Below, in pieces: positions 38,538 through 60,976 of a stretch of 64,000 nucleotides of DNA. This stretch comes from a virus: the IMG/VR virus record IMGVR_UViG_3300025418_001265, positions 1 through 64,000 of that record; one strand, given 5' to 3'. Both the position numbers and the translations under genes were made by a program. The notes under the pieces were generated by a model. The model was not told the DNA's origin. It made no database searches and saw only the letters and a list, made by a program, of their open reading frames with translations. How positions within the stretch are numbered: the stretch's first letter is position 1; each line of letters begins with the position of its first letter.

Positions 38538-39611
38538 TTACAGTCCTAATTTTGCATTAAGAGCAGCAACCTGAGCCTGTAATGTCTTTACAGCTTCAAC
38601 AAGTACCACTACAACACGGCTGTAATCGATACTTCTTGGATTACCGTCTGCAATTTGTACAACTGAAGGTAATACTGGGTAAACGTCTTCAGCTAAGAAA
38701 CCAATTTCATTAGTTAAACTTGGATATGTAATGCTATCGTAGGTTACACCTGATAATTGTGAAATTACCAATGAAGCATTAATTGAATTGTTTAATGGCT
38801 GAATGTTGGTCTTAACTGCACGTGTTGAAGTCGAGTTAAACGATGTTGCGTCGAATTCACCGGCAGATGTTAAAAATGCTAATGTTGTACCAGGGACGTT
38901 AGCCTGGAAGAATGTAACAACAGCATTATTTGCTGTAGCACCACCTGTACCGCCCCAAACTACTAATGTATTAACTGCAGCTGAAAGAGCCTGTGTATTA
39001 GCAGTACCGTTCGGTCCTACCTGATGGCTTATTGCAGAAATGTTACCACCGTTAGTAATATTAACGTTACCAGCAACCTGTAAAGGAGCGTTAGAAGTAC
39101 CGCCAGTATTAATACCGATATAACCGGTTGTTGGGTTCTGGAAAATATTAGCAGCACTTAATGAACTTGCACCTATAAATACTGCTAAAGCTCCGGAAGT
39201 GCCTGTACCAGCAAATGCACCAGAGAAGCCTGAATAACCAGAAGCACCTTGCGCGCCTGTAGAACCAGTAGCACCTTGAGCGCCTGCTGTACCTGTTGCA
39301 CCTTGATTACCTTGAAAACCTTGAGCACCTTGTGCACCAGTTGCACCTGTAGCACCCTGAGCGCCGTTAGTACCGTTTGTACCTGAAAAACCTGAAGTAC
39401 CAGTTGCGCCTTGAGCGCCAGCTGCACCCTGCGCGCCTTGAGCACCATTTGAACCAGTAGATCCTTTAACACCAGAGTAACCAGAAATACCTTGAGCTCC
39501 TTGTGTTCCGGTAGCGCCTTGTGCGCCAGTTAAACCTGTAGCGCCTTGAGCTCCCTGAGCGCCGTAGCCTGAATATCCTGAATATGCGTTTGCTGGATTA
39601 AAATATGCCAT
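38538..39611 (-). CDS. Short collagen-like fibre with S74 chaperone
   Basis: GAQ repeats; STRAVKTNI...GFLAEDV...IDYSRV. Confidence 0.85.
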
Positions 39612-39694: not shown

Positions 39695-39827
39695 CTAAAA
39701 AACAGAAGCAAATCCACCTTCAAAACCGTGAGAATGTTGTTGCGCTCCAAACTTTCTAATATAACGTAAACCAAATTCAGCTTTTTCTGTTAACTCATAT
39801 GCAAATCCAACTTTATAAGTTTTTCAT
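39695..39827 (-). pseudogene. Remnant of an outer-membrane beta-barrel (porin-like) gene
   Basis: TYKVGFAYELTEKAEFGLRYIRKFGAQQHSHGFEGGFASVF* has amphipathic strands and a terminal Phe; out of frame with the ATG at 39827. Confidence 0.45.
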
Positions 39828-40891
39828 TTAATAAAAGTAAAAATAGCTGCAGTTAATAAAAGTAAAAATGCCCAGGTACCTAATGCTTTATAATATGTGG
39901 ATAGAGGGGTACCAAAGTAACGTTTACCAATCATAACACATTCGTGCATTGGAGTTAAAAGATAACCACAATAATCTAATGCAAAAAACCATAGTAGATA
40001 CTGTCTACCGAATACTGTTGTAGCTAATACTGTTAGTGCAGCAAACTTACCGTCACTACCCATACTAAAGCTAGCAGCAAATAGTAACATACTAATAATG
40101 TACATACCACTAAACGTGTGCGGATTTAATCCCCAGCTTCTTATAGCGTATTCAATCCAGACTCTGTGCTCTTGCATATAACCAGAAGTAAAAAATATAA
40201 CACCGATTAATGCAATAGTAGTCCAGTTAACATAACTACTAATCTTTTTCCAACTATATGTCTTAGTAATATATAGATAATAAGCTAGTAGAGCACCGAA
40301 GATAGGAAACACTAACTCTGGGCCTTCTCCTCCAAGTAGCATATACGTAAGAACAGCAGCAATAAACGGTATTACGTTTTTGATAAAATTACCAGCGCCA
40401 AGATTTTCTTGAGGTGTAATCTCTATTTCGTCTTCTTTAATAACAAAGAATAAATAGTAAAAAATAAATGCAGCACTAACAGCTATCAACGGCCATAACA
40501 TTTTTAACCATACTGCATATGTAATACCAAACGCAGCCATTGGTAGTATTACTGGTTTCTCAATAGGAGACCACATATAATAGTGATGGGTGGTAAGGAA
40601 GTCGATAGGTCCAAGTTTTTGACGTGCTTTTACATCTTTCTCCTTTGAAGCTGTTGCTGTATCTAATATACCTGCACTAACTGTACTTCTACCTTCTAGG
40701 GGCAATATACCACTAATAAGACTAATAACAGCAATAACTAACTTGTTACTTTTAAGTTTAAATTTTAACCATCCATACGTACACCCGAATAGGTTATGCT
40801 CTTTGGCAATACCCGCTACTACCATAATAGTAAAGAGTACAAAGAGATAGATTTCGTCTCCGAGATAAAAACGGTCTAAAAAGACACTCAT
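39824..40891 (-). CDS. Polytopic membrane protein, DUF401/IT-superfamily transporter-like
   Basis: Many hydrophobic segments; GILPLEGRSTVSA, HHYYMWSP, GYLLTPMHEC...YF. Confidence 0.65.
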   Translation of the reverse strand: MSVFLDRFYLGDEIYLFVLFTIMVVAGIAKEHNLFGCTYGWLKFKLKSNKLVIAVISLISGILPLEGRSTVSAGILDTATASKEKDVKARQKLGPIDFLTTHHYYMWSPIEKPVILPMAAFGITYAVWLKMLWPLIAVSAAFIFYYLFFVIKEDEIEITPQENLGAGNFIKNVIPFIAAVLTYMLLGGEGPELVFPIFGALLAYYLYITKTYSWKKISSYVNWTTIALIGVIFFTSGYMQEHRVWIEYAIRSWGLNPHTFSGMYIISMLLFAASFSMGSDGKFAALTVLATTVFGRQYLLWFFALDYCGYLLTPMHECVMIGKRYFGTPLSTYYKALGTWAFLLLLTAAIFTFIK

Positions 40892-40905
40892 AGCTATATT
40901 TTATA

Positions 40906-42540
40906 TTATTTCTTTACAATAGCCAGGTAAAAACCATTCCACCACATATCAGGATCTTCTAAATCATTTAATAATATCTTATCGTATATTACTTCTAAAC
41001 TAGCATCAGCAATACCGCGTTTAGCACCATTAACTACCCCATCAAAATTTGCATCATCAAATATAAGAACAGCTTCATCTACTAGCTTATCTGCAAAGTA
41101 CATTATAGCTTGATAGTTAGCTTCTTCACTATGATCTGCATCATAAAAGAAAAAGTCTATATTACCAATATCAGATTTTTCGACTTGTAAGAAGTGACTG
41201 TTAAATACCTTTAAAGTATTATTACCTTTATACTTTTTAGCATTCTCAATAAACTTTTCTTTCGAAGATTCAAGATCTACCTTACCATTAGCAGATTTGG
41301 TTTGTTCTTGCCAATGATCGACTGCATATGCCTTGAGATTATTATCTTTAATGGTAGCGCAAAATGTACCACCATTTAACACACCTACTTCGAGGTAACC
41401 TGTCGATATTTTACCAATACCGTTCAATAGCTGTTTCATTTTGTCTGAAGTAATACCCTCTACAGTATCACCTATCGGTTGGTTAACAGTGTCTATTAGT
41501 AACTGAGTTACCTTTTCAACTTTCTTATTGTTTTTATTACCCTTGGCTCTCCATACTTTTGTACAGTAATCACAATCCCAACAGTTAAACTTACACGTCT
41601 TAATCTTTTGACGCCAAGTGTTTATAGGTTTTTCTATTAAGTTCGTGTCTTCTATATAAGGCTCGAAACCACTGAACAGTATTTCTTCTTTATTGGCAAA
41701 CCTACGAATAATGTCCATTGTCTCATTAAGACGGTTACTATTCTCTCTACCGTGCATTTTAATCGTATCAATACCTAGCTCTAAAAACTCTAACCAATCT
41801 TCTCTCCAAGGTGGAAAGTTAGCATTAGTTAACTGTACAGCTGAATCTTGAGTCTGCCATTTAGGGCAACTAACTCTACTAATAGGATCTGTAAAGTACT
41901 GATTGCCTGTTGTTCTAGTATTATTAAAGTGGTAATGCTCATCCATTACAGGGCACCCGCCTACACAACCTTCATTAGCTAATAAAGATAGCTTGATACC
42001 GTATTTGTCTTTAACTCTTTTTATCTCTCTAAGTCTATCGTGATCTCTCATAAGAACACGATCAAGGTTAACATAGTTGAACCCGGCCTGAGCTAAAGCA
42101 GCTACTTCTCTTGGTTCTTTAACCGCTCTTAAAATAGTGTTCTTAACAAATAGTTCTGGAAAGTTATGTTTAACCTGTTTAGTTAACATCCAGTGTGTAT
42201 GGGGTAGGGTACAAGACCTTATACCAGCATCATATAAAGGTTTAAAGTTTTTTATCCAAGTCTCTAAGTTCTTTTGACTAGCTCGTACTGATATATTATT
42301 AAATGTAGCAGATACAGTTATACCTGTTTCTTTTTGTACATATAAAGCTGTTTCAATAGCAAACTGATGTGCATCTTTTTGTACAAACACATCACCCATT
42401 GCATCTTGCAAGAAAGGATCAATACGACAAGTAAAATATATGTCGTATATATAATCTTTATACTCTTTACAGAACTCTAAAAACGTGTAGAACTGTTGTT
42501 CTGTAAGCTTAGGGTTAAGAGGTATACTAAATATCTTCAC
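40906..42540 (-). CDS. Peptidase U32-family Fe-S protein fused to a class I SAM methyltransferase
   Basis: NLDR, LANEGCVGGCP..DEH, SRVSC, IKMHGRE, CKFNCWDCDYC; C-domain YLEVGVLNGGT, FFYDADH, IFDD. Confidence 0.8.
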   Translation of the reverse strand: MKIFSIPLNPKLTEQQFYTFLEFCKEYKDYIYDIYFTCRIDPFLQDAMGDVFVQKDAHQFAIETALYVQKETGITVSATFNNISVRASQKNLETWIKNFKPLYDAGIRSCTLPHTHWMLTKQVKHNFPELFVKNTILRAVKEPREVAALAQAGFNYVNLDRVLMRDHDRLREIKRVKDKYGIKLSLLANEGCVGGCPVMDEHYHFNNTRTTGNQYFTDPISRVSCPKWQTQDSAVQLTNANFPPWREDWLEFLELGIDTIKMHGRENSNRLNETMDIIRRFANKEEILFSGFEPYIEDTNLIEKPINTWRQKIKTCKFNCWDCDYCTKVWRAKGNKNNKKVEKVTQLLIDTVNQPIGDTVEGITSDKMKQLLNGIGKISTGYLEVGVLNGGTFCATIKDNNLKAYAVDHWQEQTKSANGKVDLESSKEKFIENAKKYKGNNTLKVFNSHFLQVEKSDIGNIDFFFYDADHSEEANYQAIMYFADKLVDEAVLIFDDANFDGVVNGAKRGIADASLEVIYDKILLNDLEDPDMWWNGFYLAIVKK

Positions 42541-43237
42541 TCTTGGTCTTGGCTTCGATCTTTAACTGATCTTTAGCAACATCATCAATATAAGCTAAAT
42601 CGGTTCCTTTTGAACCTATTAACTGCTTCATTGTTGCTTGACCAATAGCATCGATACCTTTACCTAACACGCCGTTGTATTTAATAGCTAACTGAAGTGT
42701 TTCTTTAACATCTGTTAAAGGCATCATTAAAATCGAATCTAAGTTACCTTGACCGATACGACCGATAGTATTTAAGTCCATTGCAGCCTGTTTAGCCATT
42801 CTTGTAATCCAGTACTCGCGTTCTAGCTCTTCATTGTTGTCTTTATATTTCTCTAAACTCTGCATATCTGGACACATTGATCTTACCATATCAGAAAACA
42901 TATCAATTTCATTTTGACACATTTTCTCTTTCTTGTCATACATATGAATGTCCCAAACTGCTTGCTCTAAGTCTACCTGTAATATTTGTTTTTTAAGATC
43001 ATCAAACTCATTATCGATATCTCTTTGTAACATTTGTTTTTCGATAATACGCTTTTTACGCTGACGTTGAACCTGTTTTAACATACCGTTACGATTGTCA
43101 ATCTCTAATAAAGCTTGACGCACTCTGCGGTAATCTGTTACCTGAGAATTTACAACAAAATAACGAGCCTGAAAATCGGACATACCGATAGAGTTTTCGT
43201 TTTCATCGACAAATTTAATAATATCTTCGTTTTCCAT
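42527..43237 (-). CDS. Coiled-coil protein of unknown function
   Basis: GMSDFQARYFVV..QVT.YRRVRQALLEI, helical E/K/Q-rich; start MENED coupled by TAATATG. Confidence 0.65.
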   Translation of the reverse strand: MENEDIIKFVDENENSIGMSDFQARYFVVNSQVTDYRRVRQALLEIDNRNGMLKQVQRQRKKRIIEKQMLQRDIDNEFDDLKKQILQVDLEQAVWDIHMYDKKEKMCQNEIDMFSDMVRSMCPDMQSLEKYKDNNEELEREYWITRMAKQAAMDLNTIGRIGQGNLDSILMMPLTDVKETLQLAIKYNGVLGKGIDAIGQATMKQLIGSKGTDLAYIDDVAKDQLKIEAKTKSEDI

Positions 43238-43238
43238 A

Positions 43239-43871
43239 TTAGAATTGGTATCCAAATTTTACTTTTTCTTTTCTAGCGTTTCTAGTATCATCCCAAAGTC
43301 CTTTTCTACTAGCAAGATCCTTTGTCATTTCGTGACCAAGTACCGTTTCTCGTGCTTCAACGTGATCATCAATAGAAGATAAACTATCTGCCTGTGTTAA
43401 CAATTCGGCGTGTTTATCTGCGTCATAAGCAGGTCTTTCAGTGCTATCAAGATTAGGTAAACCTAAACGTCTATCTTCCATTTCTTGATCAATGTGTAAC
43501 TTATGAGCTTTCTTCATTAGTGATATAGTAGCTGCTGTCATATCATCAGTCAAGTAAATTTTTGTTTTTCTGCTACCTTTTGCTAACTCATCAGCATCCG
43601 GTTCTAATCCTTCTAGATCGGAATATGCTTTACGGTAACCACGAGTTTCAGCATAAAACTTATGAGCAGACAGTGCTTCAACTTCAGTCAACTCTACCAT
43701 AGGTATTGTCTTTGGTATGCCTTCAAAAGGATGTGCTTCGTAAGCACTTAATGTTGCAATAGCAGTATCGGTTGCAAGGCTGACAATATTAAAATTATCA
43801 ATACCTGTTATAACGGTCATACCATCAATATTAGGTATGTATCGGAAAAATTTAGTAAGATAATAATTCAT
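43239..43871 (-). CDS. Hypothetical protein
   Basis: Start moved to MNYYL to avoid overlap; sits in the cassette. Confidence 0.6.
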   Translation of the reverse strand: MNYYLTKFFRYIPNIDGMTVITGIDNFNIVSLATDTAIATLSAYEAHPFEGIPKTIPMVELTEVEALSAHKFYAETRGYRKAYSDLEGLEPDADELAKGSRKTKIYLTDDMTAATISLMKKAHKLHIDQEMEDRRLGLPNLDSTERPAYDADKHAELLTQADSLSSIDDHVEARETVLGHEMTKDLASRKGLWDDTRNARKEKVKFGYQF

Positions 43872-43884
43872 ATTCGTTAAATAG

Positions 43885-44955
43885 TTACATTGATGTGCCT
43901 GGAAGTCCACCTAATAAAGAACAACTACCTGTACCGCAACCGCCAGAAGAAGCACCTCCGTGTCCTTTAGGTTGAGTAGTGGAACCCATTGATACACAAG
44001 AATCTGTTGTATAATATGTTTTAGTAGAGTTATTAGTTTGTGCACCACCGTTATAAGAACCTAACGTATAGCCCCAGTCTTGTCCTATTTCACAGTTTTC
44101 TTCCCCGCAAGATTCTGGACGGCTGAATGAGGAGATTTGAGATCTTGTTGTATCGTTAAATTTGTAATATGTTGAACTACCATTATACGTACCTGAAGAG
44201 TTATACCCGTAACCTACTTTACTTGATAGACCTTTCGGTTGTCCGTCAGTACTAGAAGCAAAAGACCAGGTACCAGTAGTCCAGGTTTCATTTGAAAAGT
44301 TTAAAGAAGCTGATGAACTGTTTGCTCCAACTGTACCGTAAAACTGACCGAAGAACCCGCTAAGACCGCCTGCAGTACCACCAGAACAACTTGATCCGCC
44401 AACATTACCGGAGTTAAGAGTTGTATCTGATACGGTATTAAGTTTATCAGTGCTAGAGTTACCACCACCGGTAATATATATGTAGGTTAATGTAGGGCTC
44501 ATAAGCGTTTTACAATCTGTCCTGCTTACAGTCATATTTGCATTACCTGTATATCCTATTAACGACTCTGTAGTCATATTCATTCTAGAAACAGTAGTTG
44601 AACTACCTTGAAATGAACCGCTATCGTTAAACACATAAGAATGATAATCACTAAACCCACAATCCATATAGTTTGCAACGTTATCCATCATATCACCGAG
44701 ATTGGTGGTAACGTCAGTACTATGTACAGTCCTGTTAGTGTTTCTCCAAAGTGAACTATTTTGATATCCACAGTGCATATACCCACGAGTGTAAAGTGTA
44801 CGGTATAAAAAGCTGGTAAACCAGGCTGATATAGCATTGGTAAACGTGTTTGGAGTCATTACCCATTCGTAGCCATCAAAAACATAAAGATAGCCATTGG
44901 CAAACCCTTCGTATATTGTACCTGCTGGATGTGTTGATGGAAAACTTAAAGGCAT
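43885..44955 (-). CDS. Kelch-like beta-propeller protein, paralog 1
   Basis: Repeating Y(I/V)xGG/GY blades about 45 aa apart; N-terminal FP....YVFDGYEW module. Confidence 0.6.
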   Translation of the reverse strand: MPLSFPSTHPAGTIYEGFANGYLYVFDGYEWVMTPNTFTNAISAWFTSFLYRTLYTRGYMHCGYQNSSLWRNTNRTVHSTDVTTNLGDMMDNVANYMDCGFSDYHSYVFNDSGSFQGSSTTVSRMNMTTESLIGYTGNANMTVSRTDCKTLMSPTLTYIYITGGGNSSTDKLNTVSDTTLNSGNVGGSSCSGGTAGGLSGFFGQFYGTVGANSSSASLNFSNETWTTGTWSFASSTDGQPKGLSSKVGYGYNSSGTYNGSSTYYKFNDTTRSQISSFSRPESCGEENCEIGQDWGYTLGSYNGGAQTNNSTKTYYTTDSCVSMGSTTQPKGHGGASSGGCGTGSCSLLGGLPGTSM

Positions 44956-44967
44956 AAAAATATTTAT

Positions 44968-46029
44968 TTAACCACCTAATGAACCACCTAATAAAGTTAC
45001 ACTACCAGAACCGCAACTACCGGATGACATTCCACCGTGGCCTTTAGGTTGAGTAGTGGAACCCATACCTGAACAGGTATCTGTGGTGTAGTATATCTTT
45101 TGAGTGTTATTTGTTTGGTTACTACCGTTATAGGAACCAAGGGCATATCCCCAATCTTGCCCTACTTGCATATTTTCTTCTCCGCAAGATTCAGGACGAC
45201 TAAAACTTGATACTGAAGTACCGTTAGTATCGTTAAACTTATATAATGTTGACGAACCAGCATATGAACCGGTTGAGTTGTATCCAAATCCCCATTTACT
45301 AGATAAACCTTTCGGTTGACCGTCTGTATCTAAACTGTAGTTGATGACTGTTATATAAGTTTCAGTACTCCAAGCAAAACAACTAGTGCCAGAGTTATTA
45401 CTACTAACCCAGCCATAGTACTGACCCCAAAAACCGCTAAGACCACCTGCTGTTTGACCTGAGTTACCACCGCTAATAAGACTTAATGACAACATTGTAT
45501 CTGTAATAGTGCAAAATTTATCTGTATTAGAAGAGTTACCACCAGTAATATATATTGAAGTGAGTCCTGCGTTCATTAACGCTTTACAGTTTGCACGAGA
45601 CTGTTTTAAATCTCTATTACTATTATGAGTTCTTAAAGATTCAGTCGTCATACTCATTGATGACGTGTAAGAAGAAGTACCATTAACTGCACCAGAGTCA
45701 TTAAACACATACGTGTTATAATCACTAAACCCACCGTCAATGTATGATGCACCATTATCCATCATATCACCTAAGTTAGTGGTTGTATCGGTTAAATGTA
45801 TAGTTCTATTAGTATTACGCCAAGGACTACCACCTTGATAACCGCAATGTACATAACCACGAGTATACACGGTACGATATAAAAATGAGTTTTCAGCTGT
45901 AAACCCAGCCATACCTAACCTACCTGTTGTATTCCAGGTATAACCGTCATAAGTGTACACCCACCCTATAGGAGAAATGTACCTTTGTGCACTTGAAGGT
46001 GAAGTTGGAAAACTTAGCTGGTTTGCCAT
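44968..46029 (-). CDS. Kelch-like beta-propeller protein, paralog 2
   Basis: Collinear with 43885..44955 (RGY.HCGYQ..S.WRNTNRT, RPESCGEEN, STTQPKGHGG). Confidence 0.6.
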   Translation of the reverse strand: MANQLSFPTSPSSAQRYISPIGWVYTYDGYTWNTTGRLGMAGFTAENSFLYRTVYTRGYVHCGYQGGSPWRNTNRTIHLTDTTTNLGDMMDNGASYIDGGFSDYNTYVFNDSGAVNGTSSYTSSMSMTTESLRTHNSNRDLKQSRANCKALMNAGLTSIYITGGNSSNTDKFCTITDTMLSLSLISGGNSGQTAGGLSGFWGQYYGWVSSNNSGTSCFAWSTETYITVINYSLDTDGQPKGLSSKWGFGYNSTGSYAGSSTLYKFNDTNGTSVSSFSRPESCGEENMQVGQDWGYALGSYNGSNQTNNTQKIYYTTDTCSGMGSTTQPKGHGGMSSGSCGSGSVTLLGGSLGG

Positions 46030-46032
46030 ACT

Positions 46033-47214
46033 TTAGGCCTTTGCTTTAATGAGTGCTTTAAGTTCCTCTATCTGAGCTTGCTGTTCTTTTATGGCCTCAA
46101 CAAGTAAAGGAATCATTCTTTCATATTGTATAGTTATATAGTTTTCACCGCTCTTAGAATATGTTGAACCATCTTCATTGGTTACAGTATCGAACGGTGC
46201 TAACTTAATAACTTCAGGTAAAACTACCTGTACTTCCTGAGCTATTAAACCTACTTCAGGAGTTTCAGATGAATAACCGTAACGTTGAGCAGTTTCATTA
46301 GCAGTGTAGTTCACACCATTAAGTAATAAAACTTTTGACAACGCATTTAAAATATTGCCTTTAATATCTTTAAGTCGTTTATCAGAATAATTAGCAGTAA
46401 TACTACTAGTAGCTGTAATAGCACCTGTTACGTTTAACGCTCCAGATATACCAACGTTACCAGTTATGTTACCACCAGAAGTTTTAAATATAGTAGAAGG
46501 ATCAACATATGGCACTGCAACTACCCAAGAACTAGAAGACGATATCCAAATGTTTAAGGCACCAGTATCTGTGTTCCACCAAAGATTACCATTACCCGCG
46601 GCTGTAGGTACACCACTTACTGAACCACTTTGTACATACACAGTAGTGTTAGCGCCAAGCTGGCCTGAAAAACCAGAAGTACCGGTTGCGCCTTGAGCGC
46701 CTGATCCTGTAGCACCTTGTGCGCCAGTGGAACCTGTAGCACCTTGTGCGCCATTTGAACCGTTTGTTCCAGCAGCGCCTTGAGCGCCGGTTTGACCGTT
46801 TTGGCCAGCTGAACCTTGCGCGCCTTGAGCACCAGTAACACCCTGTGCTCCGTTTGAACCAGCTGCTCCTTGAGCGCCAGCTGCACCCTGAGCACCATTA
46901 GATCCAGCTGCACCCTGAGCACCATTAGATCCAGCTGCACCCTGAGCACCGGTTGCACCTTGAGCACCGTTTATGCCTGAATATCCTGAAGCTCCTTGCG
47001 CACCATTAGATCCAACAATACCGTTAGTGCCTTGAGCACCGGTTGCACCTTGTGCACCGTTTATACCTGAATACCCTGAAGTTCCTTGTGCGCCAGTAGC
47101 GCCCTGTGCACCTAGAGTGCCGTTTGTACCTTGAGCTCCCTGAGCTCCTTGTGCACCTAGAGCCCCAGAAAATCCTGAAGCTCCTTGCATACTATATGTA
47201 AACGGTGTTGCCAT
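46033..47214 (-). CDS. Collagen-like fibre with S74 chaperone
   Basis: GAQ repeats; YSDKRLK, GLIAQEV, IQYERMIPLLVEAIKE. Confidence 0.88.
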   Translation of the reverse strand: MATPFTYSMQGASGFSGALGAQGAQGAQGTNGTLGAQGATGAQGTSGYSGINGAQGATGAQGTNGIVGSNGAQGASGYSGINGAQGATGAQGAAGSNGAQGAAGSNGAQGAAGAQGAAGSNGAQGVTGAQGAQGSAGQNGQTGAQGAAGTNGSNGAQGATGSTGAQGATGSGAQGATGTSGFSGQLGANTTVYVQSGSVSGVPTAAGNGNLWWNTDTGALNIWISSSSSWVVAVPYVDPSTIFKTSGGNITGNVGISGALNVTGAITATSSITANYSDKRLKDIKGNILNALSKVLLLNGVNYTANETAQRYGYSSETPEVGLIAQEVQVVLPEVIKLAPFDTVTNEDGSTYSKSGENYITIQYERMIPLLVEAIKEQQAQIEELKALIKAKA

Positions 47215-48349: not shown

Positions 48350-49639
48350 TTACTTTAAAGCTTTAATTTCAGCTCTCAGTTCTTTAATAGCTTCGATTAA
48401 TAATGGAGCTAATCTTTCGTAACGCACTGTTAAATACTTTTCGTCAATAGGAGCAGGAGCTACTATTTCTGGTAATACTTTTTGTGTAGCTTGTGCAGAA
48501 ATACCAACTTCTTTAACTGGTTTATAACCAAGAGCTTGTGCAGTTTCATTTGCTTCATAATAGAAGCCTTCTAGTGAACAGATCTTGTCTAAAGCGTTTT
48601 CGATTTTACCTAACTTAGTCTTTAACCGGTCATCAGAGTAGTAAGCTGTAATGTTATTGGTAGCTCTGATTTCACCAGCTGTACCGGATGCCGAGGTATT
48701 AACACCTAATGAATTTACTTGAGCGTTAGAGCTTGTTGTAAATCCACCAGCTGCACCTTGCGAGCCTGCAGGTCCTGTTGAACCTTGAGCACCATTAGAA
48801 CCGGTTGCACCTTGTGAACCAGTAGCGCCTTGAGCACCAGTAGCGCCTTGAGCTCCATTAGAACCAGCAGCTCCTTGTGCACCATTAGAACCGTTAGTAC
48901 CAGCGGCGCCTTGTGCGCCTGTCGAACCTTTAGCACCCTGCGCACCAGTAGCGCCTTGAGCTCCGTTAGAACCAGCTGCACCTTGTGCACCAGTAGCACC
49001 CTGCGCACCGTTAGAACCTACTGTACCGTTTGTACCTTGCGCACCAGCTGCACCTTGCGCGCCTGTAGAGCCATTCAATCCGGAATAACCAGATGCAGCT
49101 GTAGCGCCTTGAGCACCTGTAGATCCTTTTAACCCAGAATAACCAGAATAACCAGAATTTGAACCAGCTGGTAGTATTTGAGAACCAGGATATTCAACAA
49201 TTTGAGCTGCAGTGCTACCAATAGCAATTAAAACTGGTTTAATAATAGAACCAATTGCTGAAGGAGGTATTACCGTTAATGCCCCTGCTACTGTGTCTGA
49301 AAGATAATAATTAGCCGCGTCTACTAAACCAGTAAACCCAGTTGCATAACCGTTTGCTACGTATGTAAACGTTGTACCAGTAGATGCTGTAACAACACCA
49401 AGTATATCTGAAGCAGAAGCAGCATTTGCTAATGCTAGAGCATAACCACCGGTAGTTTTGTATATAGCTTGTCCAGCACTAAAGGAATTCGAGTATGTTA
49501 CCGATACAGTGGTAGCATTAGCACCACTTGCACCGGTAGAACCATTTGCGCCTTGTGCACCCTGTGCTCCTGCAGGCCCTGTAGAACCTGAAAATCCAGA
49601 AGCACCTCTAAGCGCGTTGTATACAAATGTATTGCTCAT
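48350..49639 (-). CDS. Collagen-like fibre with S74 chaperone
   Basis: GAQ repeats; [19 protein letters not shown]; [17 protein letters not shown]. Confidence 0.88.
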
Positions 49640-49667
49640 ATTTCATTAGCAATAATATTTATATACA

Positions 49668-59178: not shown

Positions 59179-59205
59179 AAAACCCGCTGCAAAGCGGGTT
59201 TTTTT
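59179..59205. terminator. Intrinsic terminator between convergent genes
   Basis: AAAACCCGC-TGCAAA-GCGGGTTTTTTT. Confidence 0.85.
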
Positions 59206-60976
59206 ATCTTAGAAACCTGTTACCTAAGATACTTGGTACGGTTGTACCAGGATAACGCCATCCCTGTTCGTGTAATTCATCTAGGTCAGAGTTAACCTGA
59301 TCATTTGGTTTATTACCAATAAAGACAGGATTGTACGGTACTATGTTTTCTTCTTTTTCTGTACCAAACTTTCTATACATTTCAGATGGCTTTGGAAAAC
59401 TCACTACAAAAGGGTCCCAGTTGTTAGGTAACATTTTTAACGGTCTACCATTAGCATCTTGCTGAGTTACTTCATAGAATTGTTCTACTACTTTAGGTTC
59501 TAATATAAACATTGCCCATATAAGAGCTTCTACTCTATCGTCCAAATACTTATCTGATTGTTTCTTCCACACCCCGTTATCTTGACGTATGTATGTTTTA
59601 AATTCGTTTATAGTTTCCTTATCGTATAGTTTAACGCAGCGCAATACGTTCATCCAATAACGAAAATTGGACATTGAATTAAACTTACTATTAGTATGAG
59701 CGTAAACACCTAAGCGATTATCCTTTTCAGCTTTTTCAGTGAACGAACCCATACTTGGAGTATACTTTACTATATTAGGATATTGATGAGTATTAACTAA
59801 AGCATCTATAACAGATGCACCGCAATTATTGCGTTCAATTAGCAACGGTGGGTTACCCCATTGACCGGCTATTTCTAATAATTTCCCAGCAAAATTAAAC
59901 GGGTCTAGTTTATTATTAGCATATGTAGCGACCTGTTCTATGTTAGTTAAATCTGTTACATCTACTACCTGTATAACAGAGTTAGCTCTACCAATACCTT
60001 CTCCAACGTCAACACCTATACTATAGAAGTGTCCGTCGATATGATCTTTGTATATTTTAAATGTATTTTCATCATCTACAAACACAGGTTCCGGTGCATT
60101 AGCAGCGAGTTCATCTAACTGGTCTTTATCGAATATGTTTTCACCAGCCGCTCTAAACTCATTACCATATTCTTGATTAAAAGCTTCCACAGAACCTAGC
60201 GCTCTTGCAGTCATTTCTTTCCATTGTTCATCTCTACCAGGTACCTCCCACCAGTCTACTCTTTCACTATGCCAGCCGTTTTTATTTGCAACTGCATCTG
60301 TGTATGTGTTAAAAAATAAATTGCCTACACCGTTAGGGGTAGATAGCATAAAAATTTTTGATTTTTTAGAAGACGAAATAACAGGAAATACCGATTCCCA
60401 AAAGTCGTCCATAAACTCTGGTGGAATAAAGGCGGCTTCGTCTATGAGTAGACAATTAATAGACTCACCTCTGGCAGCATCAGATGTCGTAGTACTAATA
60501 CCAATTGAACTACCATTAGCTAGTACTAAGCCTGTTTTAGCATATTCTATTACACCAGGCTTCATATAATTGGGTAACATTTCATATGCTAAACGAATAC
60601 GTTTAAATATATTAATAGCAGTGCCTTCTTTATTAGCAATTAATAGTACTCGAAAATCGTCTTGGAAGCAAACCATCCACAAAGCAAATATAGTTAAAAT
60701 GGTAGTTTTACCAATTTGACGGCTTGCTAACACAACGTTAAATCTATTTTCTACTAGGGCTTTTAATATACGTTTTTGGTAAGGGTAAAGTTTAATTGGT
60801 TGTTTGCCTTCGTCTAGATTAACAATATAAAAGAAACGAGAGAAGTGTAATATAGATTTGCGAGCTCTTTCTAGATCTTCCACCATTTCTGGTGTCCAGT
60901 TAAATTGTGTTTCTGGAACAGGTAAGTTCTTATTACCTAAGTAGAACGTTGTCTGATCTTTTTTTGCCCGTGGCAT
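59204..60976 (-). CDS. terL: Terminase large subunit (T4 gp17-like)
   Basis: LYPYQ, SRQIGKTT (Walker A), LLIDEAAF (Walker B), STPNG, GVDVGEG nuclease motif. Confidence 0.96.
   Translation of the reverse strand: MPRAKKDQTTFYLGNKNLPVPETQFNWTPEMVEDLERARKSILHFSRFFYIVNLDEGKQPIKLYPYQKRILKALVENRFNVVLASRQIGKTTILTIFALWMVCFQDDFRVLLIANKEGTAINIFKRIRLAYEMLPNYMKPGVIEYAKTGLVLANGSSIGISTTTSDAARGESINCLLIDEAAFIPPEFMDDFWESVFPVISSSKKSKIFMLSTPNGVGNLFFNTYTDAVANKNGWHSERVDWWEVPGRDEQWKEMTARALGSVEAFNQEYGNEFRAAGENIFDKDQLDELAANAPEPVFVDDENTFKIYKDHIDGHFYSIGVDVGEGIGRANSVIQVVDVTDLTNIEQVATYANNKLDPFNFAGKLLEIAGQWGNPPLLIERNNCGASVIDALVNTHQYPNIVKYTPSMGSFTEKAEKDNRLGVYAHTNSKFNSMSNFRYWMNVLRCVKLYDKETINEFKTYIRQDNGVWKKQSDKYLDDRVEALIWAMFILEPKVVEQFYEVTQQDANGRPLKMLPNNWDPFVVSFPKPSEMYRKFGTEKEENIVPYNPVFIGNKPNDQVNSDLDELHEQGWRYPGTTVPSILGNRFLR

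Follow-up and report, generated by a model that had tools for sequence, protein, structure and literature searches.

A mobile fibre-region cassette of aquatic myoviruses as a candidate for late O2-independent hydroxylation and O-methylation of a protein target

The U32 proteins RlhA, TrhP and UbiU/UbiV are Fe-S, O2-independent hydroxylation factors and not collagenases. Their 4Fe-4S site consists of four cysteines in the arrangement CX6CX15CX3-4C, which in UbiU are C169, C176, C193 and C232. RlhA and TrhP, two of the three characterised kinds of U32 hydroxylase, act on RNA, and UbiU/UbiV act on a small molecule. To our knowledge, U32 enzymes are the sole O2-independent aromatic hydroxylases, and all those characterised act on RNA or quinones and none on proteins. 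In B. subtilis, yrrMNO combines the U32 proteins TrhP1/TrhP2 with the methyltransferase TrmR/YrrM, and tRNA U34 is converted to ho5U34 and then to mo5U34.

A second point of comparison is a set of four gene families of cyanomyoviruses, T4-GC 351-354. In the parts of Sullivan et al. 2010 (PMC3037559) covered here these genes are listed only as hypothetical, and in the supplement the T4-GC351-354 rows were found in the gene-cluster table only. The P-HM2 members, PHM2_098-101, are all classed as Late (PMC5082946 supplement).

The window analysed here is a stretch of 64,000 nucleotides from an uncultured marine phage. Between two collagen/S74 fibre genes it carries six co-oriented genes and one gene remnant on the minus strand, with overlaps or gaps of at most 14 nt between neighbouring cassette genes. 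This is the tightly packed arrangement that the original prediction had described, and its coordinates and the Pfam matches of the flanking genes agree with it. The features are as follows.

49656..49663, minus strand: nearest upstream T4-type late-promoter match, TATAAATA, preceding the fibre gene 48350-49639
46033..47214, minus strand: upstream flank, collagen-like fibre with a C-terminal S74 chaperone domain, 393 aa (Pfam Collagen 6e-26, Peptidase_S74 2.2e-10)
44968..46029, minus strand: A1, Kelch-type six-bladed propeller, 353 aa (phrog_1417 6e-70)
43885..44955, minus strand: A2, paralog of A1, 356 aa (phrog_1417 1e-65)
43239..43910, minus strand: B, small protein without a known family, 223 aa from GTG (weak phrog_1604 match, 5.6e-6)
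42527..43255, minus strand: C, helical coiled-coil protein, 242 aa from TTG (phrog_1409 2e-56)
40906..42540, minus strand: D, whole two-domain enzyme, 544 aa
41506..42540, minus strand: D N-terminal domain, divergent U32-superfamily TIM barrel (by fold and profile-profile match)
41563..41595, minus strand: D CX3CX2CX2C motif at the C-terminal end of the U32-like domain (by alignment invariance)
40906..41505, minus strand: D C-terminal domain, class I SAM methyltransferase (PF13578 1.5e-9)
39824..40891, minus strand: E, DUF401-family (IT-superfamily) transporter-like membrane protein, 355 aa (PF04165 2e-7)
39695..39827, minus strand: remnant of a small outer-membrane beta-barrel gene (tblastn against an intact relative)
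38538..39611, minus strand: downstream flank, collagen-like fibre with an S74 chaperone domain, 357 aa (Pfam Collagen 7.5e-18, Peptidase_S74 4.3e-7)

The upstream fibre at 46033..47214 also matches many tail-fibre PHROGs. According to record notes and the gene-cluster table of the Sullivan supplement, the core of the cassette corresponds to T4-GC 351-354. The four families are the same and stand in the same order as in, for example, PHM2_098-101, but identity is only 30-44 %, and the window phage adds a duplicated propeller, a transporter and the outer-membrane gene remnant. A, C and D were found by tblastn in the same order in P-HM2, S-RIM12 and S-H25. The window phage itself is not a member of the Kyanoviridae, its terminase being at most 36 % identical to that of any isolate.

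Enzyme D had been predicted to contain a U32 domain. No PF01136 match was found in its N-terminal domain, even up to E 10, nor in any of 48 relatives; current Pfam and NCBIfam models leave this U32-like branch undetected, and single-sequence comparisons with U32 proteins gave nothing significant. The link appears in profiles and structure. When the 48-sequence alignment of the domain was compared by hhalign with an alignment of E. coli UbiU/UbiV and those of 32 U32 proteins taken from genomes that are no longer than 480 aa, the match had a probability of 97.4 % (E 1.3e-11, 199 columns). The AF2 model (pLDDT 91.5) has as its top VIA match the U32 protein Mk0906 (5D88; Z 17.0, rmsd 3.1 A over 224 residues, next match Z 12.9), and 5D88 is also the top Foldseek match (E 2.7e-8). 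Judged from profile alignment and predicted fold, the domain is a true but very distant U32 relative, as had been proposed, and it is the most divergent U32 branch among those compared here.

D shares with UbiU/UbiV, TrhP/YegQ, RlhA/YdcP and Mk0906 the TIM barrel, a K-x-x-G-R motif and a C-x3-C pair after strand 6. K261-M-H-G264-R265, in which K261, G264 and R265 are invariant, is aligned by hhalign to K273-I-E-G-R of UbiU, and H202 is also conserved. The cysteine motifs named in the original prediction are present as described: E190-G-C192-x3-C196, C225 and C316-x3-C320-x2-C323-x2-C326 are invariant or nearly so in the 48 relatives. C192-x3-C196 pairs with U32 C-x2-P-C, while the U32 C-x6-C segment falls in a gap, so that D differs from the U32 hydroxylases in having only the other half of the four-Cys site. 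It differs from them further in adding C225, H202 and the C-terminal CX3CX2CX2C, in lacking the U32 C-terminal domain, and in being phage-encoded next to propeller genes. The C-terminal Cys4 motif is invariant in four alignments of relatives and has no counterpart in U32. It may bind a metal or an Fe-S cluster, and together with C225 it could substitute for the missing U32 ligands.

The predicted fusion to a SAM methyltransferase was borne out. Residues 383-496 score 39.1 bits with PF13578 (Methyltransf_24), above its cut-off of 26.3, and the domain is O-methyltransferase-like. Invariant residues (alignment numbering) are E39-x-G41-x3-G45, Y121-D122 and D150-D151-A-N153, where by analogy the Gly-rich and D-D-A-N motifs would be SAM-binding and metal-binding. 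The methyltransferase is a separate gene adjoining the U32-like gene in another lineage and is fused in others. Like yrrMNO, the cassette pairs a U32-type protein with a SAM O-methyltransferase of the cation-dependent type; unlike yrrMNO, its two domains are fused (or encoded by adjacent genes), stand in a late fibre operon and come without an RNA-binding domain, and Pfam places the methyltransferase in Methyltransf_24.

A1 and A2 are 59 % identical (E 4e-135) and belong with T4-GC351 ('sericin 1 precursor-like') to phrog_1417. Searches up to E 10 found no Pfam family in either protein, Kelch repeats included. The AF2 model of A1 is of moderate confidence (pLDDT 64, pTM 0.65); its residues 53-346 match 6HRL, 6FMP and 2VPJ (KLHL17/Keap1/KLHL12) in VIA with Z 26.0, 26.0 and 25.9 (rmsd 2.7-2.9 A, about 270 residues), and Foldseek likewise gives a Kelch-like match (E about 1e-10). 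Structure prediction, which had been suggested as a check, thus returned Kelch-like propellers and a U32-type barrel. The phage proteins share the six-bladed fold with Keap1, KLHL12 and KLHL17 but carry an N-terminal extension of about 50 residues and a Gly/Ser-rich tail, are phage-encoded and occur in one to three copies: one in 37 related loci, two in 20 and three in six. They had been described as Kelch-like paralogs conserving Cys and His. The fold and the His stand, H78 and H331 being invariant in the family; the Cys are conserved only between A1 and A2, and none is invariant.

Protein C belongs to T4-GC353, and its counterpart in Ralstonia phage RP12 is ORF140. Its family has the motifs FV..Q.T...Q..E and E...W..R..KQA..D....GR...GN. 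For B, Pfam, NCBIfam and Atlas gave no lead, and a B-like gene adjoins C in relatives, with the order either way.

The cassette genes co-occur widely across viral contigs, which was the outcome foreseen for a gene-neighbourhood search. Relatives of D number more than 1,900 in the protein collection and at least 586 in IMG/VR, and a propeller gene and gene C lie upstream of D in all 63 viral contigs with enough flank. E adjoins D in 43 of 75 loci and is absent from 22. Among phage records D occurs in 126, mostly cyanomyoviruses of Prochlorococcus/Synechococcus, and E in 12. RP12 keeps gene C, the U32-like gene and E and has neither propeller nor methyltransferase. The idea of a dedicated pathway was not upheld: the cassette is neither peculiar to this phage nor a fixed set of six genes, as the loci without E, the broken outer-membrane gene and the reduced RP12 version show. 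The papers searched contained no function or description of the cassette, in keeping with the earlier statement that none was known, nor did the literature searched include virion proteomics of any carrier phage. No T4-type late-promoter motif lies inside the cassette. The window holds 8 copies of this motif where 12.75 would be expected, so there is no enrichment and the match at 49656..49663 is weak evidence taken alone.

Three further neighbourhoods were seen. In one phage lineage the U32-like gene is overlapped by a radical SAM gene whose product ends in a Cys-rich C-terminus. In Dehalogenimonas the neighbours of a distant homologue are two radical SAM genes, one of them for a B12-radical SAM protein that has a PqqD domain, and another distant homologue follows a six-bladed propeller gene.

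We propose that the cassette probably modifies a protein chemically. In its specific form, as a mobile accessory cassette of aquatic myoviruses that carries out late O2-independent hydroxylation and then O-methylation of a protein target, the proposal is the likeliest of the readings considered but tentative: a serious possibility that stops short of being probable. The genes, folds, homologies, synteny and P-HM2 late transcription on which it draws are direct observations. The core would consist of one to three Kelch-type propellers, the two small helical proteins B and C and the two-domain enzyme D. The D barrel, whose conserved cysteines probably hold Fe-S or another metal, would add a hydroxyl to a C-H without O2, on the model of the U32 hydroxylases and methyltransferase partners such as TrhP/TrmR, and the fused cation-dependent-type domain would then methylate the new hydroxyl. 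The most likely substrate would be a co-made protein, that is C, the propellers or a neighbouring fibre. The radical SAM neighbours and the propeller-linked homologue hint that the substrate is a protein or peptide. RP12 lacks propeller and methyltransferase, so the enzyme cannot depend on a propeller as its substrate, and coupling to methylation is not universal. Against the proposal count the half-present four-Cys site and the missing Pfam U32 match, the scarcity of E in cultured cyanophages, the lack of U32 genes beside cellular DUF401 genes, and the RNA and quinone substrates of all characterised U32 hydroxylases. A phage U32 version tied to fibre-region propellers would extend O2-independent chemistry to a new setting, possibly host recognition by abundant ocean viruses. 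The cassette is widely shared among phages, with no account of its function in the papers searched, and cultured carriers (P-HM2, Syn19, S-RIM2) make the question testable.

E matches PF04165 with 31.1 bits (cut-off 24) over model positions 62-384 of 393, and three phage relatives reach 40-42 bits. It is above the Pfam cut-off but distant from the cellular DUF401 members (about 21-24 % identity), and its 36.5 bits to TIGR00529 are far under the cut-off of 378. We know of no member of DUF401 (PF04165, TIGR00529) with a known substrate. The HH (TTHHYY) and H-E-C (PMHECV) motifs reported earlier are found in E, and the adjacent porin remnant is equally real. It is the tail of an OMP_b-brl outer-membrane barrel gene that is intact in contig L068 (5732-6340, 202 aa, with a signal peptide), where it follows E. 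Positions 39713-39823 match the last 37 residues of that gene (residues 161-197, 54 % identity by tblastn). The start ATG-AAA (start plus 3 codons) survives at 39827 and the last 40 or so codons are kept, ending in GGFASVF and a stop; the middle is deleted and the frame shifted, leaving no intact barrel here. Intact relatives score 32.1 bits (L039) and 21.9 bits (L068) against OMP_b-brl PF13505, with a cut-off of 28.7.

The core is frequently accompanied by the transporter and the outer-membrane protein as extras. In 49 of 109 loci a barrel gene from one or other of two unrelated families stands no more than 1.5 kb from E, which favours reading the two as a transport pair. Under the protein-modification proposal E, with an intact barrel where there is one, would move an anionic co-substrate or metal complex across the host envelope. 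A closed version, in which a self-contained phage system uses a U32-type Fe-S enzyme to make a methoxy group or built-in cofactor on C or on a propeller receptor-binding protein, with barrel and DUF401 protein as a phage-encoded path through both membranes that supplies an oxygen-donor carboxylate or metal, is distinctly unlikely. Were it real, no earlier U32 enzyme is known to modify a protein, and virion maturation would have gained a novel type of chemistry.

The same genes bear on the best-surviving alternative, that the substrate is a small molecule. Here an anionic aromatic, carboxylate or metal chelate would be moved in or out through barrel and DUF401 protein, and D would hydroxylate and methylate it in the way that quinone precursors are handled by UbiU/UbiV and UbiG; the modified compound, or its target, would be bound by the propellers. 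In many phages, and in RP12, translation of E is coupled to that of D or of the U32-like gene, which in RP12 overlaps E; relatives of E have sub-threshold CitMHS matches. In contig L006, D and E are 97 % identical to those of the window and A, B and C 55-77 %, and therefore D and E behave as one unit. The recruitment of two barrel families beside E and the UbiU/UbiV precedent fit as well. However, E is missing from most D-carrying cultured cyanophages and from the 22 loci mentioned above, the outer-membrane gene is dead in the window, the cassette has no other small-molecule pathway genes, and no U32 neighbour was found for cellular DUF401 genes. We regard a small-molecule substrate as unlikely.

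D might instead modify nucleic acid as a one-chain analogue of TrhP plus TrmR, by C5 hydroxylation of pyrimidines (tRNA, rRNA or phage DNA) followed by O-methylation, with the propeller, B and C as unrelated fibre genes travelling along. Besides the precedent of RlhA and TrhP, hydroxylase and methyltransferase stay paired, fused or adjacent, and the best PDB sequence match of the methyltransferase is B. subtilis YrrM/TrmR (5ZW3), the ho5U34 O-methyltransferase. That match is marginal (E 0.012), and the Pfam assignment is Methyltransf_24. D shows no further Pfam match that would correspond to the U32 C-terminal RNA-binding domain, and no tRNA gene was found within the 64-kb window. The invariable linkage to C and A, late expression and the fibre-gene setting also speak against this alternative, as does RP12, which retains C, the U32-like gene and E without the methyltransferase; we find it rather improbable.

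Very improbable is a purely structural fibre-tip module, with receptor-binding propellers, B and C as assembly factors, D as a non-catalytic or merely metal-binding chaperone, and E and the outer-membrane gene as unrelated morons like lom of the lambda fibre region, for although the position between fibre genes, late expression, variable propeller number, fast divergence of A, B and C relative to D and E (as expected of host-range proteins) and decay of the outer-membrane gene alone would fit, D is the most conserved cassette gene, positions of the kind used in catalysis and in binding a cofactor or SAM do not vary even among relatives as low as about 25 % identity, and RP12 and bacteria have the U32-like gene but no propellers with it.

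The starts of the two small proteins may be shorter than listed: for B the ATG at 43871 is more likely than the GTG, and for C the ATG at 43237 is more likely than the TTG.

The cassette consists of six head-to-tail ORFs on the minus strand, bracketed by two fibre genes and separated by spacers or overlaps of at most 14 nt. It lies within a series of collagen-like fibre genes.

Features of the cassette and its flanks
46033-47214, minus strand: upstream flanking fibre gene with collagen repeats and an S74 intramolecular chaperone domain, matching many tail-fibre PHROGs
44968-46029, minus strand: A1, cassette ORF, first of the twin propellers
43885-44955, minus strand: A2, cassette ORF, second propeller
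43239-43910, minus strand: B, cassette ORF, small protein
42527-43255, minus strand: C, cassette ORF, small protein
40906-42540, minus strand: D, cassette ORF, fusion of a U32-like domain and a methyltransferase
39824-40891, minus strand: E, cassette ORF, DUF401 transporter
38538-39611, minus strand: downstream flanking fibre gene with collagen repeats and an S74 intramolecular chaperone domain, matching many tail-fibre PHROGs

The parent IMG/VR virus record has 96,979 bases and an estimated completeness of 46 %. The large terminase of the window (59204-60976) shares no more than 36 % identity with its counterpart in any cultured phage, the closest being Sinorhizobium phiM12-like phages, and we therefore place the virus in an uncultured T4-like lineage outside the Kyanoviridae. 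The same comparison leaves a cyanophage identity unsupported. Relatives of the outer-membrane gene described below suggest a diderm host. ARAGORN detected no tRNA gene in the whole window (1-64000), a megablast search of the cassette against phage records returned no match, and PADLOC had no hit among A1, B, C, D and E.

The N-terminal domain of D (residues 1-345) is confidently modelled by AF2 as a TIM barrel (pLDDT 91.5). No Pfam model matched this domain or its 47 relatives, NCBIfam likewise gave none for the domain, and searching PDB sequences with D or with the 48-sequence profile of its family returned chance zinc-finger matches only. Among solved folds the U32 protein Mk0906 (5D88) is clearly the nearest, with a VIA Z of 17.0 and an rmsd of 3.1 A over 224 residues compared to 12.9 for the next entry; 5D88 is also the top Foldseek hit (E 2.7e-8). 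For a homology test we aligned U32 proteins drawn from genomes together with E. coli UbiU and UbiV. Compared by hhalign, the 48-sequence D-family alignment matched this U32 alignment with a probability of 97.4 % (E 1.3e-11, 199 columns), a signal obtained only with the alignment of U32 proteins, the comparison to the single UbiU or UbiV sequence being not significant. Taken together, the fold match and the hhalign result establish that the U32 assignment of the original prediction is right at the superfamily level.

In the hhalign alignment, D K261-M-H-G-R265 falls on K-I-E-G-R of UbiU and D C192-x3-C196 on the U32 C-x2-P-C pair, while the U32 C-x6-C segment (UbiU C169/C176) lies opposite a gap in D. 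Residues D33, N81, E190, C192, C196, E201, H202, C225, K261, G264 and R265 are invariant or nearly so, as is the block C316-x3-C320-x2-C323-x2-C326. The domain is thus a new U32 branch whose cysteine site has been rebuilt and which may hold a putative Fe-S cluster. The C-terminal domain of D belongs to Methyltransf_24 (39.1 bits, cut-off 26.3), with an invariant SAM loop and Y-D ... D-D-A-N motif; by sequence, the closest protein of solved structure is YrrM/TrmR of B. subtilis, though the match is marginal (E 0.012).

Relatives of D number more than 1,900 in the protein collection, and the N-terminal domain alone is found in 333 cluster representatives. The 126 phage records carrying D are nearly all cyanomyoviruses, together with the Ralstonia phages RP12 and RP31. 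As had been predicted, the cassette genes co-occur in other phages. Among the best 80 IMG/VR loci, A and C were scored in the 63 with at least 4 kb of upstream sequence and lie upstream of D in all of them (63/63), with A present once in 37 loci, twice in 20 and three times in 6. E adjoins D in 43 of 75 loci; another 10 carry it at a different place in the locus, and 22 lack it. The arrangement of D itself varies: in a second phage lineage its halves are two separate neighbouring genes, and two further genes have been inserted (L153:6994-7995 and L153:9737-10738). One encodes a radical SAM protein whose C-terminus is Cys-rich, and it overlaps the U32-like gene; the other lies between the methyltransferase and E and codes for an outer-membrane-type protein of 333 aa that has a signal peptide and ends in Phe. 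RP12 has a C-like ORF140, a stand-alone U32-like ORF139 and E as ORF138, which overlaps ORF139, and has no propeller and no methyltransferase.

Positions 39824-42540 of the window correspond to L006:10001-12711 in the related contig L006, with D and E 97 % identical, compared to 55-69 % for A1/A2, 60 % for B, 77 % for C and 63 % for the flanking fibre. A sharp mosaic boundary marks the C/D junction, and D and E behave as one conserved block beside fast-changing A-C. Beyond the stop codon of E the two sequences are no longer similar, so that a recombination junction lies exactly there.

A1 and A2 are 59 % identical, both fall in phrog_1417, and neither has a Pfam or NCBIfam family. An AF2 model of A1 built from 31 sequences, of moderate confidence (pLDDT 64, pTM 0.65), clearly resembles Kelch domains, with VIA Z of 26.0 for KLHL17 and Keap1 and 25.9 for KLHL12 (rmsd 2.7-2.9 A, residues 53-346) and a Foldseek E of about 1e-10 against Kelch structures. 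The propellers had been described as Kelch-like paralogs conserving Cys and His; the Kelch likeness and the His hold, as His, Tyr, Trp and acidic residues are invariant in the family, but no Cys is, its conservation being confined to the two paralogs.

E belongs to DUF401 (31.1 bits, cut-off 24), and its relatives show sub-threshold similarity to CitMHS, placing it among the IT-superfamily anion carriers. We also looked for cellular DUF401 genes adjoining U32 genes in one phylum, where 62 of 201 genomes carry DUF401; none of the 32 loci examined has a U32-like or D-N-domain-like neighbour within 1.5 kb. After the TGA of E the sequence reads ATG-AAA-AAC-TTA-TAA, followed in another frame by some 40 sense codons that close with ...GGFASVF-stop. 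The E of contig L068 is 79 % identical, and behind it stands a 202-aa gene whose product has a signal peptide and ends in Phe; window positions 39713-39823 correspond to residues 161-197 of this product at 54 % identity. Together with related genes in L039/L210 and L074/L218, this gene matches OMP_b-brl (32.1 bits for L039, where the cut-off is 28.7). The remnant is therefore the leftover of a small outer-membrane barrel gene after internal deletion. The "porin remnant" of the original prediction was correct as to an outer-membrane gene, and the barrel is of the small OmpA/OmpX-like kind and not a classical porin. A tblastn search of the remnant against phages gave no match. Of 109 loci, 49 have an outer-membrane gene no more than 1.5 kb from E, belonging to one or other of two unrelated families. 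The roughly 42 sense codons of the remnant (39695-39826) are in frame with E after its TGA, so that read-through would lengthen E; this shared frame is probably a coincidence, with a chance of one in three.

Orthologs of the block are transcribed late. In P-HM2 it corresponds to PHM2_098-101, equivalent to T4-GC 351-354, and all four genes are of the Late class on Prochlorococcus MED4 (Thompson et al. 2016, PMC5082946, supplement file 3). Where Sullivan et al. 2010 (PMC3037559) mentions T4-GC 351-354, they figure as hypothetical genes only, and we found no description of the cassette in the literature searched. On the cassette strand, the only T4-type late-promoter matches in this stretch are at 49656 and 52921, both upstream of fibre genes, with none within the cassette. 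This placement is compatible with the cassette being co-transcribed with the fibres, a faint hint, since the window shows no enrichment of the motif.

Homologs of the D N-terminal domain that are 25-30 % identical occur in MAGs of many phyla. A complete Dehalogenimonas chromosome (CP139473.1) has three copies adjoining reductive dehalogenase rdhA and rdhB-like genes (L089:5630-12765, L092 and L095). Downstream of one copy are two radical SAM genes, the first of them encoding a B12-binding protein that includes a PqqD domain. In another MAG (L091:6890-11108) the gene just before the homolog encodes a six-bladed propeller (DUF5128/NHL) and a multihaem cytochrome-like gene comes after it, pairing a propeller with this U32-like family outside phages too. 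Other cellular contexts differ. These neighbourhoods hint at peptide or protein substrates.

By analogy with UbiU/UbiV, TrhP and RlhA, we hypothesize that the barrel of D would bind a cluster and hydroxylate without O2, and that the fused methyltransferase may then O-methylate the new hydroxyl, as in the succession of TrhP and TrmR. The target would be a late-made protein, possibly C, the propellers or a fibre, with E and the outer-membrane barrel perhaps delivering a co-substrate or metal. This sequence of events, which retains the outline of the Fe-S hydroxylation, methylation of a virion target and solute or metal import first proposed, is tentative, and we give it somewhat less than an even chance. 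Alternatively, D and E may be the centre of a small-molecule pathway; their behaviour as a unit would suit this, the lack of E in 22 of 75 loci would not, and we consider it unlikely. A nucleic-acid target, suggested by the marginal TrmR match but at odds with the constant linkage of D to A and C and with the late expression, is a little less likely again. A fibre module devoid of catalysis, its membrane genes being unrelated morons, would agree with the fibre-rich surroundings and sits poorly with the invariant motifs of D; we hold it quite improbable. These readings together leave some of the probability unassigned.

B weakly matches phrog_1604 and C strongly matches phrog_1409, both PHROGs of unknown function; C is a helical protein in which two motifs are conserved. 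Neither has anything in Pfam or NCBIfam or a usable match in the ESM Atlas. A paralogous origin of B and C is unsupported, there being no detectable relationship, and C as a chorismate mutase is without Pfam support. ESM Atlas entries begin at residue 14 of B and residue 7 of C, each as Met, so that the true starts are probably ATG 43871 (B) and ATG 43237 (C) and not the upstream GTG and TTG of the ORF finder. One C homolog (L027:8707-10050) carries an N-terminal extension of about 170 residues that begins Cys-rich (C..PC.SC...PCC).
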